NCBI RefSeq assembly: GCF_036588685.1
Contig: NC_086383.1
Coordinates: 6,510,001 to 6,574,000, forward strand
Origin: Mytilus trossulus
Lineage: Eukaryota
DNA: 64,000 nt
Reading direction: 5' to 3'
Below are positions 42,395 to 53,885 of the stretch, piece by piece (positions within the stretch are counted from its first letter, which is position 1; each line of letters starts with the position of its first letter). A model generated the notes under the pieces. It searched no databases. It was not told the origin of the DNA and was given only the letters and a program-made list of their open reading frames with translations. The position numbers were made by a program, and so were the translations under genes.

Positions 42395-42789
42395 AGGAAG
42401 CTATTAAACCAAGAGTTCCAAATGGTGAAGTTGAAATCATCCCTTCGTAAATTTTACGGACGCCATCACGAGTTAGTTGACCGTTATGGAATAACCGTTT
42501 CACAAATGATATCGGATATGTTCCTTACAATCCCCTTCCCTTTCATGAATTTGACCTACCTACTTAAACTATTTACCGGATTTGTAATCACATAAGAAAC
42601 ACGACGGGTGCCGCATGTGGATCAGGATCTGCTTACCCTTCCGGAGCACCTGAGATCACCCCTAGTTTTTTGGTGGGGTTCGTGTTGTTTATTCTTTAGT
42701 TTTCTATGTTGTGTCATGTGTACTATTGTTTTTCTGTTTGTCTTTTTCATTTTTAGCCATGGCGTTGTCAGTTTGTTTGAGATTTATGA
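42395..42789 (+). mobile_element. 5'-truncated Penelope-like retroelement 3' end (RT C-terminus plus UTR)
   Basis: Frame from 42395 reads RKLLNQEFQMVKLKSSLRKFYGRHHELVDRYGITVSQMISDMF, which I recognise as resembling the C-terminal region of invertebrate Penelope-like RTs; the downstream part is repeated elsewhere in the window. Confidence 0.65.
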
Positions 42790-45454: not shown

Positions 45455-45638
45455 TCCACATGTTTTACTTATTTCAATATTTGTGCAACTGGTATGACCC
45501 CTTAGATAGTAAATATTTCAGAAAAAAGTAGACAGAATACAGTCTCTGTATATTATAGTAGTATAATGTTCCTTCATCCAAGCATATCTTGGATGTGCAG
45601 GATGAAGGTCATTCTTAGAATATGAGCCTGAGGCTCGA

Positions 45639-45786
45639 AAGTAATGAATTAGCTTAACTTCTCTATGAGGGATGAAGTTAACATGTAATATCTCTGTTTA
45701 AAGAAACGAACTATAGCCATCGGACTATAGATAGCCAGTGACCTTGACCCTAGTATATAAGCACCTGTTCCATAATAACTCGTCAT
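45639..45786. repeat. DIRS 3' inverted terminal repeat
   Basis: Reverse complement of 50881-51028 with one mismatch (45717 vs 50950). Confidence 0.95.
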
Positions 45787-45866
45787 AATTTAAAGCAAGT
45801 TTGTGTCGACCAAAAAACTCATAAAAAAAGGGTGGGTCTAACTCATAATCCCTAGGGTGGGAATTA

Positions 45867-45990
45867 ATTACTTTCGAGCCTCAGGCTCATATTCTAAGAA
45901 TGACCTTCATCCTGCACATCCAAGATATGCTTGGATGAAGGAACATTCTTATTCATATTTCGCCTTCGGTCTCAAGTAATGAATTAGCTT
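45867..45990. other. DIRS internal complementary region (ICR)
   Basis: 45867-45947 is the reverse complement of terminus 45565-45645; 45945-45990 is the reverse complement of terminus 51012-51057; the two overlap at ATT (45945-45947). Confidence 0.95.
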
Positions 45991-46065
45991 GTTTAAAGTG
46001 TAGACACAAACTAAAAACAAAAGCATACAAATGCAACATTTAATAAAGCTTAAACAAATACAAGA

Positions 46066-47073
46066 TCAAGCATTAATAACTGCAGAAGCAAAGTCTGTAT
46101 TGCCAATATCATTAAATTCTCTGTTATAAAACTTATAAAATGTATTAGCACATGTCCAATTAGCTGTTGCCATAATGTCTTTCACAGAACATCCAGAAGC
46201 TAACGCAGCTGAAGTAGAGGCACCTCTAAATGAATGTGCCTTGAAAATGTTAATATCTATGCCCACTAAAAGTAACACGGTTTTTAACCATCTAGATAAC
46301 GTAGAAGTAGAAACTTTACGAAAAGTTGCATAAGAAATGAATAAACTAGAAGTCTTCCTGACATCTCTTGTACGTAAAACATAATTAATCAATGTCTTCA
46401 CCACGCAAAGTTCTGGTTTAACAAAACGCTTAAACACCACATTAGGCAGACTAAAACCAGGTCTAGTAGTTTTCAAAAGTTCCTGTATATGTAACACTAT
46501 AATCCCTTGTCTTTGACTAAAAGACATAAAATTTAAATCTAGTGCTGATATAGATTGTGCTCTAGCAGCTGTGGTCAAAGCAACTAAAGCTACAAGTTTA
46601 AAAGTCAAATTTTTCAATGTTAAATCCTCCAAAGGATATAAAGAACTCAAGAACGAAAGTACTAAATTTACATCCCAAGTGAAAGAGTATCTTGCTCTTG
46701 GCGGATTCAGGTTAAAGCAACCTTTCAACATACGTTCAACAAAAACAAATTTAGTAACCTCTACTCCAAAAAAGGATAAAGTCTGTGTCAACATTGACCG
46801 AGTAGTATTTAACACTGAATATGAAAAGTTACTGTTTTTCAAAAAATTTAAATAATCTATTACATCCTTTTCAGATGGTCGAAAATAATTGGTTTTCCTT
46901 TGAACACACCAAATAACGAATTTTCTCCAAGAATATTGGTATTGCTTGATTGTAGAAGGTCTCCAAGATGCAATGATGACATCTGCAGATGATTCTGAAA
47001 ATCCTCTATCAAGTAACGATTTCCGGATACAATACACACGGTTAAACTTAGTCTCTTCCTTAATGGATGGCAT
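46066..47073 (-). CDS. DIRS tyrosine recombinase (335 aa)
   Basis: N-terminal core-binding region (WRPSTIKQY...W) and catalytic residues AAR, LKT, HSFR, ANW, FYKFY; overlaps the end of pol. Confidence 0.95.
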   Translation of the reverse strand: MPSIKEETKFNRVYCIRKSLLDRGFSESSADVIIASWRPSTIKQYQYSWRKFVIWCVQRKTNYFRPSEKDVIDYLNFLKNSNFSYSVLNTTRSMLTQTLSFFGVEVTKFVFVERMLKGCFNLNPPRARYSFTWDVNLVLSFLSSLYPLEDLTLKNLTFKLVALVALTTAARAQSISALDLNFMSFSQRQGIIVLHIQELLKTTRPGFSLPNVVFKRFVKPELCVVKTLINYVLRTRDVRKTSSLFISYATFRKVSTSTLSRWLKTVLLLVGIDINIFKAHSFRGASTSAALASGCSVKDIMATANWTCANTFYKFYNREFNDIGNTDFASAVINA

Positions 47074-49034
47074 TCTCCTGTATGCGGCATCATTACTAAA
47101 TCTTTGTGTTGAGGCAGTCTAACTGGCAAAGAAATTAACATTGGTATTAGTAAAGAAAACCAACTTTGTGCAGGCCAAAATGGAATAATCAAAATAGCCT
47201 TCTCAACCTTGTCACTTAAAATTTTCATTAAAATTTTCCCCAACAAAGTAAAAGGTGGGAAAATATATGGTCTAAAATTAGACCATGAAATAGTAAAAGC
47301 ATCAACATAAGTAGCTTGTGGGTCAAATGACCATGATGCAAATCTAGGGACCTGAAAATTCAAACGTGAAGCAAACAAATCAACGTTTGGAACAAAGAAA
47401 TGTTTACAAATTCTATCAAATATTTCTACTTTCAATTGCCACTCTGTGGAATCTGTAAAATTTCTAGACATATGATCAGCATCAAAATTTTCTATTCCAG
47501 GAATATACTGAGCTGTGATAAAAATATCTCTTTCTGAACACCAAGCCCAAATCTCTGCAGCAAGCCTGTCAAGTGACAATGAGGCCATGCCTCCCATTTC
47601 ATTAATATAAGCTACTGCAGTAGTATTGTCTGATCGTATACCAATATGGCATGACTTTTTGTGACTAAAAAATGCTCTTAAAGAGAAAAATATAGCCAAC
47701 AATTCTAAGAAGTTTATATGAAAAGAGCGTTCTGACAAGCTCCATCTACCACCAGCAAATTGTCCTTCAAAATTAGTTCCCCAACCTTCTAATGAAGCGT
47801 CTGTTTCAATCCAAAAGTTAATTTGTATGGGTCTTATCAGTTTTCCATTCTCAGATCTTAAATTGTTAACCCACCAAAAGATTTCAGTTCTTGACTCTTG
47901 TGTGATAAAAATTTTTGAGTCAAAATCACCATGACAACTATTCAGTGCTCCCACTTTATTTCTCTCCATGTTTCTGTAATGAAGTGGTCCCACAGATACT
48001 GCATTAAAAGCATGTACCACAAGACCAATAAATGATGCAAAGCATCTTACAGTAACACACTTCTGTTGAAGAATAGTTTTCCCAAGGGAGATAATTTTAT
48101 TCAATTTCTCATCTGTCAGAAAAATCTTAAATAACTCAGTATCAATAATGAGACCAAAGAAAACAATGCGTTTTGAAGGAATAAGGACAGACTTCTTAGT
48201 ATTAATTCTGAAACCAAGTTCATCAAACTTCTGCACCATTTTTTCTGTATTTACAATACAACTTTCTAAATTCTGATCCATAACAAGAGAATCATCAATG
48301 TAATAAATACATCTAATGCCATTTTTCCGAAAAAATGCATAAACAGGTTTTAAAACCTTAGTAAAAACTCTTGGTGCAGAAGCCAATCCAAAACAAAGAA
48401 CCTGAAATTCATATAAATGTCCTTTCCACATGAAACGCAAATATCTCTTAAAGTCATTATTTATACTTATACTAAAATAAGCATCTGTGAGATCTATGGA
48501 TGTTAGATAATCATCCTTCTGAATTACATCTAAAACAAATGATAAATGTTCTTGTTTAAAATGATGATAAGCCACAAAATTGTTTAAATATTTTAAATTG
48601 ATAACAGGCCTTGAAGACCCATCTTTCTTAGGAACTAAGAAAATATTGGAAATAAACTGGTTCTCCAATGATTCAACTTTTTTAATAGCTCCCTTAGCCA
48701 ATAATTTTTGGACTTCTTCTGAAATAATTTCAATCTTGTGAACAGGGAAATGTATTTCATGCATAAAAGATGAAGCTTGTGGCTCAACATCAAATTCAAT
48801 TTTATAACCATTTCTAACTGTATCTAATATCCATAGATCACTTGTAATACTTTCCCATACGGGATAATTAAGTTCTCTCACCTTAACTATTGTCGATAAT
48901 GGTTGTTCTGGTTGAACCCTCTCTGAGAGTTGTGACCTCTTTGGGACCCTCTGTTCCCTGTCTGGAAACCTCTCCCTCTGCCTCTGAGGGAGGGGAATTG
49001 TCGTCCGCCCTGTCGACCGACAGGGCCTCTGGAG
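46860..49034 (-). CDS. DIRS pol: reverse transcriptase, RNase H and Dam-like adenine methyltransferase domain; no ATG at its start, frame open up to 49055
   Basis: RPVINLK, DLTDAYF, FGLASAPRVF, YIDD (RT); TDASLEGWG, HINFLEL, SDNTTAV, ADHMSR (RNase H); DLFAS...DAF...YIFPPF (MT). The ORF-track start at 48881 is GTG. Confidence 0.93.
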   Translation of the reverse strand, partial: LQRPCRSTGRTTIPLPQRQRERFPDREQRVPKRSQLSERVQPEQPLSTIVKVRELNYPVWESITSDLWILDTVRNGYKIEFDVEPQASSFMHEIHFPVHKIEIISEEVQKLLAKGAIKKVESLENQFISNIFLVPKKDGSSRPVINLKYLNNFVAYHHFKQEHLSFVLDVIQKDDYLTSIDLTDAYFSISINNDFKRYLRFMWKGHLYEFQVLCFGLASAPRVFTKVLKPVYAFFRKNGIRCIYYIDDSLVMDQNLESCIVNTEKMVQKFDELGFRINTKKSVLIPSKRIVFFGLIIDTELFKIFLTDEKLNKIISLGKTILQQKCVTVRCFASFIGLVVHAFNAVSVGPLHYRNMERNKVGALNSCHGDFDSKIFITQESRTEIFWWVNNLRSENGKLIRPIQINFWIETDASLEGWGTNFEGQFAGGRWSLSERSFHINFLELLAIFFSLRAFFSHKKSCHIGIRSDNTTAVAYINEMGGMASLSLDRLAAEIWAWCSERDIFITAQYIPGIENFDADHMSRNFTDSTEWQLKVEIFDRICKHFFVPNVDLFASRLNFQVPRFASWSFDPQATYVDAFTISWSNFRPYIFPPFTLLGKILMKILSDKVEKAILIIPFWPAQSWFSLLIPMLISLPVRLPQHKDLVMMPHTGECHPLRKRLSLTVCIVSGNRYLIEDFQNHLQMSSLHLGDLLQSSNTNILGENSLFGVFKGKPIIFDHLKRM

Positions 49035-50398
49035 TTTAAAGACTGATAATGGTCTCTACTAAAGTTGCTTGGAGCACTAAAGTTGTTGGACCTAGATCCT
49101 CTACCTAGGAATCTAGGACTAGCTATTGGAATCTTGGTGTAGTCACCAAGTTCCTTCATCTGCTTCATGCAGTCAGCCCCAAAGAGTGATGAATCCACCG
49201 GTACATCAGAATTACATATAGGTTTAAACTTGTCATTAAAATAAGGTCTAAGTGCTGAGCGTCTCCTCTGTGTCAGAGAGAGAAAACCATGGCCTAACAA
49301 ACAAATAGAGTCAGACAAAAGCTTTCTAGTGTTGTCGACATTTAAAGGCTCATTCCTACAGCACTGATTGGCCAACTGAACAATAGGGGTCAACCCCTTA
49401 ACAAAATATCTTTGAGTTTCTTGCATTTTGGAATCAACAGTGTGGGCCTGTCTAGGCAAAGCGGTCCAAATCTCCTTATTGACCCTAGGAACACAAAGGT
49501 TCTCACAATTTTCTGGCCGTAAATATCTCTCCTCGATCAATTTAATACTCTCGTAATTTGATTTAACCGACATTGCAGCATTAACAGCCTTTGAAAGCCC
49601 AGAAGATAATTTTGGCCCAGTCTTCTCTTCAGTATTCAACTGTGGGATTTCCCAATCAAAATCATATTGTTCACCCTGTTCAACAACAGGTTGAGAAAGT
49701 GGTACATTAACCTCACTAAGAGGAGCCCTAAAGGCATTAGAAAACCCTAGGGCTGGGTCAAAAGAAGTGTCAAAATCAACTGGTGCTGGACTGTCATCAG
49801 CCCTAGCAGAGACTCCAGAAGGAGGTAAATATACTGGATCCTCCAAGTAATCCATATCAAAATCCTGAACAGAATCTGTATTTAAATTAGCATCTAAAGG
49901 CAAAATTTGAGTGTTAGAGGATACAGCAGCAGGGTTAACAACCTCTGCTTGAATGGAAGACTGTGAAACTGTCTCACACCTAGGGGCCCTTACAGGCTCT
50001 TTCCCACAATTATTAATAAATCCTCTAAAAAGATGAGTCAAAGTGTCAATTGACTTGCCCATTGTAGATATGCCCATTTTATCCCTCAACACTGATAATT
50101 CCTCAGGAGATAAATCCTCAACTCTAGGAGATTTAGTGGCTTTACTAGTAGCACTAGTAGCCTTAGCTTTCCTTTTGACTGATTTAGGTGCCTTGTCACT
50201 CGAAATGGCAGTGCCTTTTATAATTCTATTAGGCTTTTTAGGAGGTTTATTGACACTACCTCTAGTTTTCCTATTCAAATCATCATTTTTTATTTCATTA
50301 GCAACATACAGATGCTGAAAATCATAGCCATCGGCTTCATTATCAATATCATTTTCATCATGCAAAAGCAAAACATCTTCATTTTCAGACTCAGTCAT
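48887..50398 (-). CDS. DIRS gag-like ORF1 (503 aa)
   Basis: First ORF of the element; RPENCENLCVPRVNKEIW core and RG-rich basic C-terminus. Confidence 0.88.
   Translation of the reverse strand: MTESENEDVLLLHDENDIDNEADGYDFQHLYVANEIKNDDLNRKTRGSVNKPPKKPNRIIKGTAISSDKAPKSVKRKAKATSATSKATKSPRVEDLSPEELSVLRDKMGISTMGKSIDTLTHLFRGFINNCGKEPVRAPRCETVSQSSIQAEVVNPAAVSSNTQILPLDANLNTDSVQDFDMDYLEDPVYLPPSGVSARADDSPAPVDFDTSFDPALGFSNAFRAPLSEVNVPLSQPVVEQGEQYDFDWEIPQLNTEEKTGPKLSSGLSKAVNAAMSVKSNYESIKLIEERYLRPENCENLCVPRVNKEIWTALPRQAHTVDSKMQETQRYFVKGLTPIVQLANQCCRNEPLNVDNTRKLLSDSICLLGHGFLSLTQRRRSALRPYFNDKFKPICNSDVPVDSSLFGADCMKQMKELGDYTKIPIASPRFLGRGSRSNNFSAPSNFSRDHYQSLNSRGPVGRQGGRQFPSLRGRGRGFQTGNRGSQRGHNSQRGFNQNNHYRQ
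49007..49040 (-). promoter_or_regulatory. Predicted -1 programmed ribosomal frameshift signal (U UUA AAC + 7-nt spacer + GC-rich hairpin)
   Basis: Gag frame TCT TTA AAC; the -1 frame TTT AAA CTC is the pol frame; hairpin GCCCTGTC-GGTC-GACAGGGC at 49026-49007. Confidence 0.8.
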
Positions 50399-50545
50399 TT
50401 TAAAAGTTTGAATAATATAACGTGTACCTGTGCAGGTAAAACACGTGCTAAACCTGAAGAGTACAAGCGACCTTCAGTTAAAGAGAAATACACCTGTAAT
50501 TATCTACCTGTTTAACAAACAGGAGTAAAATAACAAACTAACAAC

Positions 50546-50751
50546 TTGCCGTACTACGTAGGCAAAAACTTTAATGAAAAAACTTGTCATACAACGTAGA
50601 CAATATTTATTTATTTATTTACAACAACACTTGTCGTACAACGTAGACAAGAAATTCGTTATTTCTAATTAATATCAACACTTGTCGTACCTCGTAGACA
50701 AGAAATTCTTTATCTAATTAATATCAACACTTGTCGTACCTCGTAGACAAG
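50546..50751 (-). repeat. Five-copy bulged stem-loop array in DIRS leader
   Basis: (C)UUGUC-UAC-GNN-GUA-Y-GACAA(G) at 50546, 50584, 50630, 50681, 50730. Confidence 0.85.
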
Positions 50752-50879
50752 AAATTCTTTAATTCTCAAGACAATGGGATTTAAGAAACTTGGAAAAAAT
50801 AACTTACCAACCAAAAAAACTAAAACTATTAAGAAAAATAACTGTGAAGTAAGTGGTTACTTCACCCCTCTAGAAAAAT

Positions 50880-50928
50880 AATGACGAGTTATTATGGAAC
50901 AGGTGCTTATATACTAGGGTCAAGGTCA
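50880..50928 (-). promoter_or_regulatory. Predicted DIRS core promoter (TATA at -31, Inr TCATT, adjacent DR0-like motif)
   Basis: TATATAAG 50913-50906; TCATT with A at 50882; GGGTCAAGGTCA at 50917-50928 (plus strand). Confidence 0.6.
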
Positions 50929-51028
50929 CTGGCTATCTATAGTCCGATGACTATAGTTCGTTTCTTTAAACAGAGATATTACATGTTAACTTCATCCCTC
51001 ATAGAGAAGTTAAGCTAATTCATTACTT
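50881..51028. repeat. DIRS 5' inverted terminal repeat
   Basis: Reverse complement of 45639-45786. Confidence 0.95.
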
Positions 51029-51145
51029 GAGACCGAAGGCGAAATATGAATAAGAATCGTAGTTTACATGTGGATCAATGTGAAAACATAATTGTCTCTA
51101 AGGGGGTATAATAGGTGTGAGTCTTGCGATCTAAAAACCATGATA

Positions 51146-51597: not shown

Positions 51598-53885
51598 TAT
51601 GGAGAACGCTCTGATTGGCTTATTTATTTTTCATGTTTAGTTATCTAGCATACGATTGGTTGTTCTTGTGCATGTTTAAAACCGGTCTTTTCTTTGAATA
51701 AAAGTCAGTCTGAATACGGAAACAATATCCGGACAACTGTGTTGTCGTTTTTCTCCCAAAAAAACTGAATCGGAATTTTCATTAGAATGGAGAACACATC
51801 GACTTGATGATTAATTTATTATGGAAGGAAGAGAAGCGACATACAACTTAAGGTTTCCTCGTTTAATAGTAAAGATACCCACTCACTTTGTTTTTTTACC
51901 AACTTCTGGAGTAGTTGGTTAATTGATTCATTGTGATTTCTATATTCATCAACCGACAATTTGATATGTTTAAGTGAAGATTATTATTCATTCCCGTAAT
52001 TGTTCTCAGATCTGTAATTGTAATGAAACAGTTAACCTTTCCATTTGAATTTTTGTTGAAAGATAACATGAAATTAACACTAGTACAGATTCTTGAAGAT
52101 TTCAAATTTGAAGAATTTTCCTTTAGAAAATTTCAAAGGACATCCAATCAATTAATAGTATTGCAATTATATTCTCCCCCTTCACTCATTATACAAGTTT
52201 GGAAAAAAAAAGATATGATTTGAATATTATAATGTATTTTAATGAACTATTTTGGGCTTTTTGCGGTTTATCTTTGATATTTTTGTATTATTTTTGTCAA
52301 TGTAACCCCCTTCTTCTGGATATTATATCCGACATGACGAGTTATGTGATATTGCAGCTAATTAACAACATACATGTATCACTACGTTCAAGTTGTATTT
52401 GTGTTGTTTTTGAAGAATTTGCTGATCGTATAATATCATTGAATGATAAAGACACGTTAATGTTACACTATTGACTAACGTTAGTACAGTTAGTTGCGAA
52501 ATAAAACCAGCATACAAACTTATATTTGTATTTTGGTATGTAAAAGAGGGACAAAAGATACCAAAGGGAGAGTCAAACTCATAAATCTAAAGCAAACTGA
52601 CAACGCCAAGGCTACAAATGAAAACGACACACAGAAAACCCATAGCACACATGACACACCATAGAAAACTACAGAATAAACAACACGAACCCCACCAGAA
52701 ACTAGGGGTGATTTAGGGATGAGGTGAACAAAACTGATTTTAGAAAGGAGAATCACAATCAATGAAACTCATCAGTGATAAATAACTGACAATCTGTCAT
52801 GCTAATAAATTGTATGTATTATTGACATAAGACCTTAACCAACGTAGCATAAAATTCAAAAGTATAAAATTAATATGTCTCATGCACAGTTCTGTTGTGT
52901 GTGCTTGTCTTAATACACTCCGAGAAAGGTCTTAATTATCACATTCCACATTTAAATTGTGGACAATTTCAGGACAACATTGACTGTCTTCCGTCAACTC
53001 ATAAACACAACATTATACTTGGCTGACGTAAAGCAATTCCTGATAAGTCTCCTATTTAGGAACAGGCATATGAAAATATGGAGTTTTTTTTGGTCCTATG
53101 TTTGTATAGCATTTGCAAATAGTTCATCTTTTATTTATTCGATCAACAGCTAGGAACATGTATTGTTGGAACGTGCTTTTTGTTCTGTAAAATGAGAACC
53201 GTCATTGTTATTGATACATGTATCTATAGGATCCATTTCAGTAAATGAACAATGAAAAAAAACGCGGTTTGTGAAACAGCTGTATTTACACAAAGCAACC
53301 TATGAATAGATATATTATTCTTGATAAAATACTTGGATAAATAACTTTAAATAGTTTATGGATGTTTAACTTTCTTATACATACTAATTTCGCGGATACG
53401 GTGAGTTGTGTTATGACCGCTAATGAGGATACCATCAATTCAAGCATACCTATATCTACAAAATCTAAACGAATTAAAGCTCAATCGAAGAATGATATTG
53501 ATAGAAAAATAAAGAAGGCTGTTAATGCACATACGAGATATAGGTATGGAAAATCCGTTTTAAAACCCGCTTGTACTCCCACAAATCCCAAGAAATAAAT
53601 GCTTAATAATCAGATCTTTAAGATTTCATACACGGACGAATAGCTTAAGTGTATAATAGTGTACGTAATGTCCTTATTTCACAATTGTTCTTATTAGAAA
53701 GGTTTAATAGCTGGTATGTCGAATGTTCCAAACTATGTTTGTGATTATGTACCCAAAAACATACAAGATAAATGACTCATTCAATAGTTTTACTTTCTTC
53801 AATATGTTTCTAGAATTGACATTTGAAAATAAACTCATCATAGATAGCAGGATCAGTATTTTATAGTTACGACTGTTAATCAATT

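Follow-up and report, generated by a model that had tools for sequence, protein, structure and literature searches.

DIRS1-like retrotransposons such as Dictyostelium DIRS-1 carry inverted terminal repeats (ITRs), an internal complementary region (ICR) with a 3-nucleotide (nt) junction, and open reading frames (ORFs) for a gag-like protein, for a protein (pol) with reverse transcriptase, RNase H and methyltransferase domains (RT-RH-MT) and for a tyrosine recombinase (YR), as described in the accessible part of PMC3266345. A complete element with the same set of features is located on the minus strand, at about 45565-51057, of a 64,000-nt stretch of Mytilus trossulus DNA (NC_086383.1, positions 6,510,001 to 6,574,000), which is called the window here. 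Its terminal and internal repeats (inverted repeats I1, I3 and I4) place it among the DIRS1-like elements, as do its gag-like, RT-RH-MT and YR ORFs, whose order and homologues agree; the short pol/YR overlap corresponds to that reported for molluscan elements in the same part of PMC3266345. No mechanism for the expression of pol or YR is given there, whereas the window element contains a predicted shift site and phase-locked splice signals. We consider it likely that the gag/pol junction of this element carries a programmed -1 frameshift signal, which would yield Gag-Pol on unspliced RNA and also Gag-YR on a predicted spliced RNA.

For the YR retrotransposon Ngaro, too, programmed frameshifting has been proposed, in this case at the RT/RH-to-YR overlap (Poulter and Butler 2015, according to the accessible part of PMC13003380). 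The window signal is found at gag/pol instead, and the pol/YR overlap is not enriched in slippery heptamers; furthermore, Ngaro has split direct repeats, whereas the termini of the window element are of the ITR/ICR type. In its composition of heptamer, short spacer and simple G+C-rich stem-loop the window site is similar to the signals of HIV-1 gag/pol, HTLV-II gag/pro and human astrovirus, as far as these are described in the available sections of PMC7618472, and the available sections of PMC5009743 list U_UUA_AAC and A_AAA_AAC among the shiftiest heptamers. Different from these viral signals, the DIRS fusion would comprise neither a protease nor a DDE integrase, and alternative splicing is predicted to let two enzymes be made through one shift. 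The 1a/1b frameshift element of coronaviruses uses a pseudoknot. Its heptamer is identical to that of the window, but there is no convincing pseudoknot at the window site. In the literature searched, partly as abstracts or excerpts (including PMC7192593, PMC13003380, PMC5009743, PMC9210276, PMC3266345, PMC6681497, PMC3783388, PMC5633606, PMC8547959, PMC7618472 and bioRxiv 10.1101/2022.06.16.496473), we found no report of a DIRS gag/pol slippery site or of a spliced Gag-YR, and the expression of the overlapping DIRS frames is not addressed in it; subscription papers, Repbase and supplements may hold a prior mention.

The gag-like ORF1 of the window element (48887-50398, minus strand) encodes 503 amino acids (aa) counted from the first ATG, ends in an RG-rich tail and is homologous to ORF1 of other copies; a Pfam search gave no match for it. 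The pol frame (46860-49055, minus strand) is open from 49055, directly behind a TAG at 49058-49056, in the -1 frame of gag, and overlaps gag by 169 nt. It comprises the transframe region followed by RT (RVT_1, E 7.5e-20) and by RNase H-like and methyltransferase-like (PCIF1-like) segments, the last two with matches under the curated Pfam cut-offs. The first ATG of pol is codon 98 (48764), 31 codons beyond the conserved Trp which opens the RT region. Within the overlap, TTTAAAC at 49040-49034 is the sole canonical heptamer and lies in the X XXY YYZ phase of gag. After a spacer of 7 nt it is followed by a hairpin at 49026-49007 with the 8-bp stem GCCCUGUC/GACAGGGC, which is the predicted stimulator (pair probabilities 0.98, folding z about -2.6 against dinucleotide shuffles). 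A shift at this site is predicted to produce a Gag-RT-RH-MT fusion of 1179 aa by counting. An earlier note on this stretch, made from the letters only, had already described the missing early ATG, an overlap of about 170 nt, the in-phase heptamer with pol in the -1 frame, the spacer with the GC-rich hairpin and a fusion of about 1,180 aa, all of which agree with our measurements.

Two further points of the earlier note stood in part. The second stem it described, at 48992-48972, is predicted by folding as well, but its top pair is particular to the window copy, since six of the seven aligned close copies carry an A there; this stem is therefore the weaker evidence. The label "coronavirus-type" applies to the heptamer and not to the stimulator: a simple scan for H-type pseudoknots gave second stems of 4 bp only, most of them with G-U pairs and none convincing, and none of the Rfam frameshift families matched at the site. 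According to these predictions, the window site resembles the retroviral stem-loop signals and not the pseudoknot element of coronaviruses.

Codon shuffling of the window overlap gave an in-phase heptamer in 1909 of 20000 shuffles, whereas a heptamer together with a Watson-Crick hairpin of at least 8 bp starting 5-9 nt downstream occurred in only 2 of 20000. Thus, in a single element the heptamer alone is unremarkable and its combination with the hairpin is remarkable. Over the junction, five other copies in the same genome show 99-100% identity and one shows 96%, and part of pol is 96% identical to a named protein of Mytilus galloprovincialis. What the DNA itself shows is an in-phase heptamer with its hairpin, a -1 overlap and no early pol ATG, and most related families have the same arrangement.

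These families were derived from 140 loci plus the window: 40 loci of the own genome (out of 150 pol matches, picked mainly for long open frames before the junctions were inspected), 79 metagenome loci (the best 80 of 554 were retained) and 21 that came from records of bacterial genomes; one further locus from viral contigs stayed outside the comparison. A pol match was present in 131, of which 91 passed a filter for an intact junction and were collapsed at 85% identity to 60 families, while 40 were excluded as truncated, broken or in-frame fusions (5 loci, handled separately). Pol is in the -1 frame of gag in 47 families, in the +1 frame in 12 and in frame behind a stop in one. The 21 DIRS-like loci within bacterial genome records (L180-L200), several of them from invertebrate symbionts or marine samples, are probably host contamination.

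A canonical in-phase heptamer was detected inside the overlap of 41 of the 47 '-1' families (11/12 from the own genome, 23/25 from metagenomes, 7/10 from other sources), with 8.8 expected from codon shuffling and 5.3 from the rate in the gag body. The remaining two phases of the same overlaps yielded 11 and 5, and the adjacent upstream window 4/47. The '+1' families are at chance (3/12, 2.9 expected), and all 12 have a pol ATG. Of the features known from canonical -1 signals, the window site has the in-phase heptamer, a slippery site conserved among relatives and a predicted downstream structure. The heptamers differ between families, U_UUU_UUA (21) and A_AAA_AAC (14) being the commonest and U_UUA_AAC occurring in three. 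Slippery synonymous codons are far commoner in the overlap than in the gag body for Phe-Leu (21/24 vs 4/47), Lys-Asn (14/25 vs 2/53), Leu-Asn (3/3 vs 0/83) and Pro-Asn (4/15 vs 0/31), so that protein constraint does not explain them. Conservation of the heptamer phase in related DIRS, named in the earlier note as a check, is thereby borne out.

The T-rich slippery run followed by AG might alternatively be a 3' splice acceptor, by which an upstream ATG is brought into the pol frame. A G follows 16 of the 21 U_UUU_UUA sites, yielding TTTTTTAG, and acceptors scoring above 3 are present in 14/47 overlaps compared to 4/47 upstream controls; splice scores in this study come from our own generic matrices, built on the consensus and not trained on this organism. 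However, no G follows the other five U_UUU_UUA sites, none of the motifs A_AAA_AAC, C_CCA_AAC and U_UUA_AAC could act as an acceptor, and the best acceptor in the window overlap scores just 2.8. The property common to all motifs is slipperiness in the gag phase, and we regard splicing into the overlap as very improbable. Transcriptional slippage adding a base on A or T runs would open the pol frame, too, and 35 in-phase sites hold six T or six A. For a slipping polymerase the phase should not matter, but runs of at least 6 end in one gag phase in 42/48 cases, and the window site has no such run, which makes this mechanism barely credible.

Neither a heptamer nor a shift would be needed if pol and YR each had a start of their own, through leaky scanning, a non-AUG codon, subgenomic RNAs or reinitiation behind the gag stop. 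This is compatible with the near-cognate codons ACG, ATT, ATA and GTG in the pol stretch ahead of the RT Trp in the window, with the ATG of the window YR and with the '+1' class, which seems to use its own pol ATG. A pol-frame ATG ahead of the RT Trp, possibly usable, exists in 17 of the 47 '-1' families but is missing in the other 30, and independent starts leave the phase specificity of the heptamers, the synonymous bias and the heptamer turnover described below unexplained. We therefore judge them improbable.

Downstream of the heptamer, folding is more stable than upstream (mean z -1.25 vs +0.12; z below -2 in 12/44 vs 1/44 families). In the nearest family (L101, 71% identity) the heptamer, the 7-nt spacer and the stem are all kept; the loop differs, and one compensatory change and one G-U change in the stem preserve the pairing. 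The stem covariation proposed as a check in the earlier note is thus observed, with support from this one family; the closest protein relatives are 60-66% identical. A sister family (L012-L030) with U_UUU_AAC and partly paired stem changes was not counted, because it contains many stops and two of the changes are at CpG. This family is about 71% identical and comprises many copies with common stops and indels, suggesting that it spread as a non-autonomous element.

Several observations weigh against frameshifting. No clearly stable downstream stem was found in 25 of the 44 families (z above -1 by simple folding, a model that leaves pseudoknots aside). Six of the 47 '-1' families lack a canonical heptamer (U_UUU_UUG in three, a stop just ahead of the heptamer in one, none in two), and the 17 families with a pol-frame ATG mentioned above belong here, too. 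Moreover, the families are related, so that a P value from shuffling overstates their independence. This objection is answered in part by repeated turnover, as the heptamer identity switches at least 13 times in a quick tree of 44 families with 14 open branches. Considering the contrast of 41/47 to 3/12 together with this turnover, it is likely from the sequence comparison that Gag-Pol of the '-1' families is made by a -1 ribosomal frameshift.

The earlier note overlooked a splice-like donor at 48881-48875, only 5 nt beyond the gag stop and in phase 0 of pol, which suggests that the shift serves the recombinase as well. The YR ORF (46066-47118, minus strand; Phage_integrase E 4e-5, again below the curated cut-off) is in the -1 frame of pol and has a single ATG at codon 16. 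It is bounded by a TAG in which a predicted 3' acceptor ends (47135-47119, YR phase 0). Among the '-1' families, 38 have a short YR frame. When the 45 nt past the gag stop were scanned in these, the highest-scoring donor fell in pol phase 0 in 36 cases, compared to 27 of 1026 control windows, although its distance from the stop varies and the region is poorly conserved. Over the 300 nt that precede the YR core, the highest-scoring acceptor has YR phase 0 in 35/38, while other good AGs in pol are distributed over the phases as 47/37/50. Donor and acceptor phases are thus compatible across families. Most acceptors coincide with an FPPF-Ser motif (located in 33/38), whose Ser is coded by AGY in 25/26 cases vs 421/1617 elsewhere; in several lineages the acceptor is shifted downstream, phase 0 being kept and the YR frame usually closing just upstream of it. 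Ribosomes that have not shifted would end at the gag stop, which lies ahead of the donor, so that only those that have shifted could read across the junction in frame.

On the other side, many of the acceptors occupy one homologous position, and the matrices are generic ones. The window itself is one of the three acceptor misses, because its in-phase acceptor (TAG 47121-47119, score 3.3) is second best to an out-of-phase AG 4 nt upstream (47124-47123, score 5.1); two related families are without this competing AG. In addition, the window YR carries its own ATG. Scoring of 35-40 candidates for each of seven families in the own genome, with inspection of ten partial copies, revealed no intron-less genomic copies. 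Independent support for splicing comes from one RefSeq gene model, XP_072015819.1, which is related to the fused clade described below and joins Gag to YR at the positions predicted by the donor and acceptor of that clade. It is one of 19 long YR matches and an annotation model whose read support is not visible, and two other Gag-YR models (2/149 representative matches) have different junctions. Three raw RNA runs contributed 57, 25 and 23 reads (105 in total), a coverage too sparse to speak for or against either splicing or the shift; there was no splice joint among them, almost no read fell near the donor, and the slippery site was not covered. One contig, which may or may not derive from RNA, runs through the element without splicing, and its heptamer and first stem are identical to those of the window. 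A 1227-nt in-frame deletion in L225 (G000:C14:73367000-73373500), which starts exactly at the predicted donor, was rejected as evidence for splicing since it ends at a short direct repeat and not at AG. The YR protein P0249 has a long N-terminal extension, uninterpretable from the protein alone.

Even with the -1 shift accepted for Gag-Pol, YR might be expressed separately. Its own ATG could be used on an RNA whose splicing starts in the 5' untranslated region (UTR) or behind the gag stop, or the pol/YR overlap could hold a second -1 shift. The ATG at codon 16, the out-of-phase best acceptor and donor-like sites in the 5' UTR of the window agree with the former, and the shift into YR proposed for Ngaro (Poulter and Butler 2015, quoted in the accessible part of PMC13003380) is a precedent for the latter. 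A second shift is unsupported, however, as pol-phase heptamers occur in the pol/YR overlap of 11/38 families (7.5 expected) and not in the window. Strict phase 0 at donor and acceptor would be needless for a separate YR, and 14/38 families have no YR-frame ATG ahead of the core. Separate expression of YR therefore appears rather unlikely to us, though it deserves to be kept in mind. That a spliced RNA lets the same shift make Gag-YR is, judged from these phase patterns, plausible and somewhat favoured for the clade, and a little less so for the window family.

For the frameshift signal with alternative splicing, the following course of expression may be envisaged. Most ribosomes would complete Gag (503 aa), while a minority would stall at the hairpin, slip back by one base and pass the gag stop to give the 1179-aa Gag-RT-RH-MT. 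With less certainty, RT and RH (1763 nt in the window) might be removed when the donor at 48881 is joined to a YR-phase acceptor, and shifted ribosomes on this RNA might then synthesize a Gag-transframe-YR protein of 856 aa by count.

Two other arrangements bear on the generality of this scheme. In a nested clade (L107, L112, L158, L171) gag and pol are fused in frame and have no strong in-phase slippery heptamer, which indicates that Pol tolerates fusion to Gag. All four families of this clade have a conserved tandem donor, whose two sites are separated by 5 nt and fall in phases 1 and 0. In Drosophila copia, which is not known to have a frameshift or a tyrosine recombinase, the ratio of Gag to enzyme is set by splicing. 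The fused DIRS clade appears to set this ratio by splicing, too. A query with the Gag of the fused clade gave seven matches, all with RT and none with a Gag-YR. In the '+1' class the gag stop is UGA-C in 9/12 families (L064, L066, L068, L070, L072, L076, L105, L196, L198) vs 1/47 in the '-1' class, and in 8 of the 11 mapped the long YR frame continues the gag frame straight after its stop, a pattern expected for readthrough; pol of this class appears to be translated from its own ATG. The proteins P0143, P0145, P0281, P0287 and P0299 each correspond to one ORF in which Gag is joined to a long YR frame. The recombinase could be a Gag fusion across DIRS, made by three swapped recoding schemes: in the clade of the window, a -1 shift together with alternative splicing, with Gag, Gag-Pol and Gag-YR as products; in the nested clade, an in-frame gag-pol in which a tandem donor takes the place of the shift; and in the '+1' class, pol from its own ATG and a readthrough-like YR frame that follows a UGA-C gag stop. 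We are evenly divided on this generalization.

The remaining parts of the window element are the left terminus with the left ITR (50876-51057, minus strand; inverted repeats I1 and I4), the right ITR with a right extension (45565-45791, minus strand; I1 and I3) and the ICR (45862-45990; I3 and I4), the two halves of which overlap by 3 nt. The 5' UTR contains a 49-nt repeat in four units (50566-50761), one contig being one unit short, and this array is flanked by donor-like and acceptor-like sites. A 123-nt inverted pair (42667-42789 and 52579-52701, 90% complementary) surrounds the DIRS element, which may thus be nested inside another element.

If this reading of the gag/pol junction is correct, exact sites would be available for a large animal DIRS clade, since Pol would have its frameshift cassette and YR its splice junction. 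The -1 signals described would grow by dozens of natural ones in which the heptamer has been exchanged repeatedly. Annotations of DIRS pol and YR based on an ATG would start at the wrong places, and both enzymes would enter the particles as Gag fusions, without a protease.

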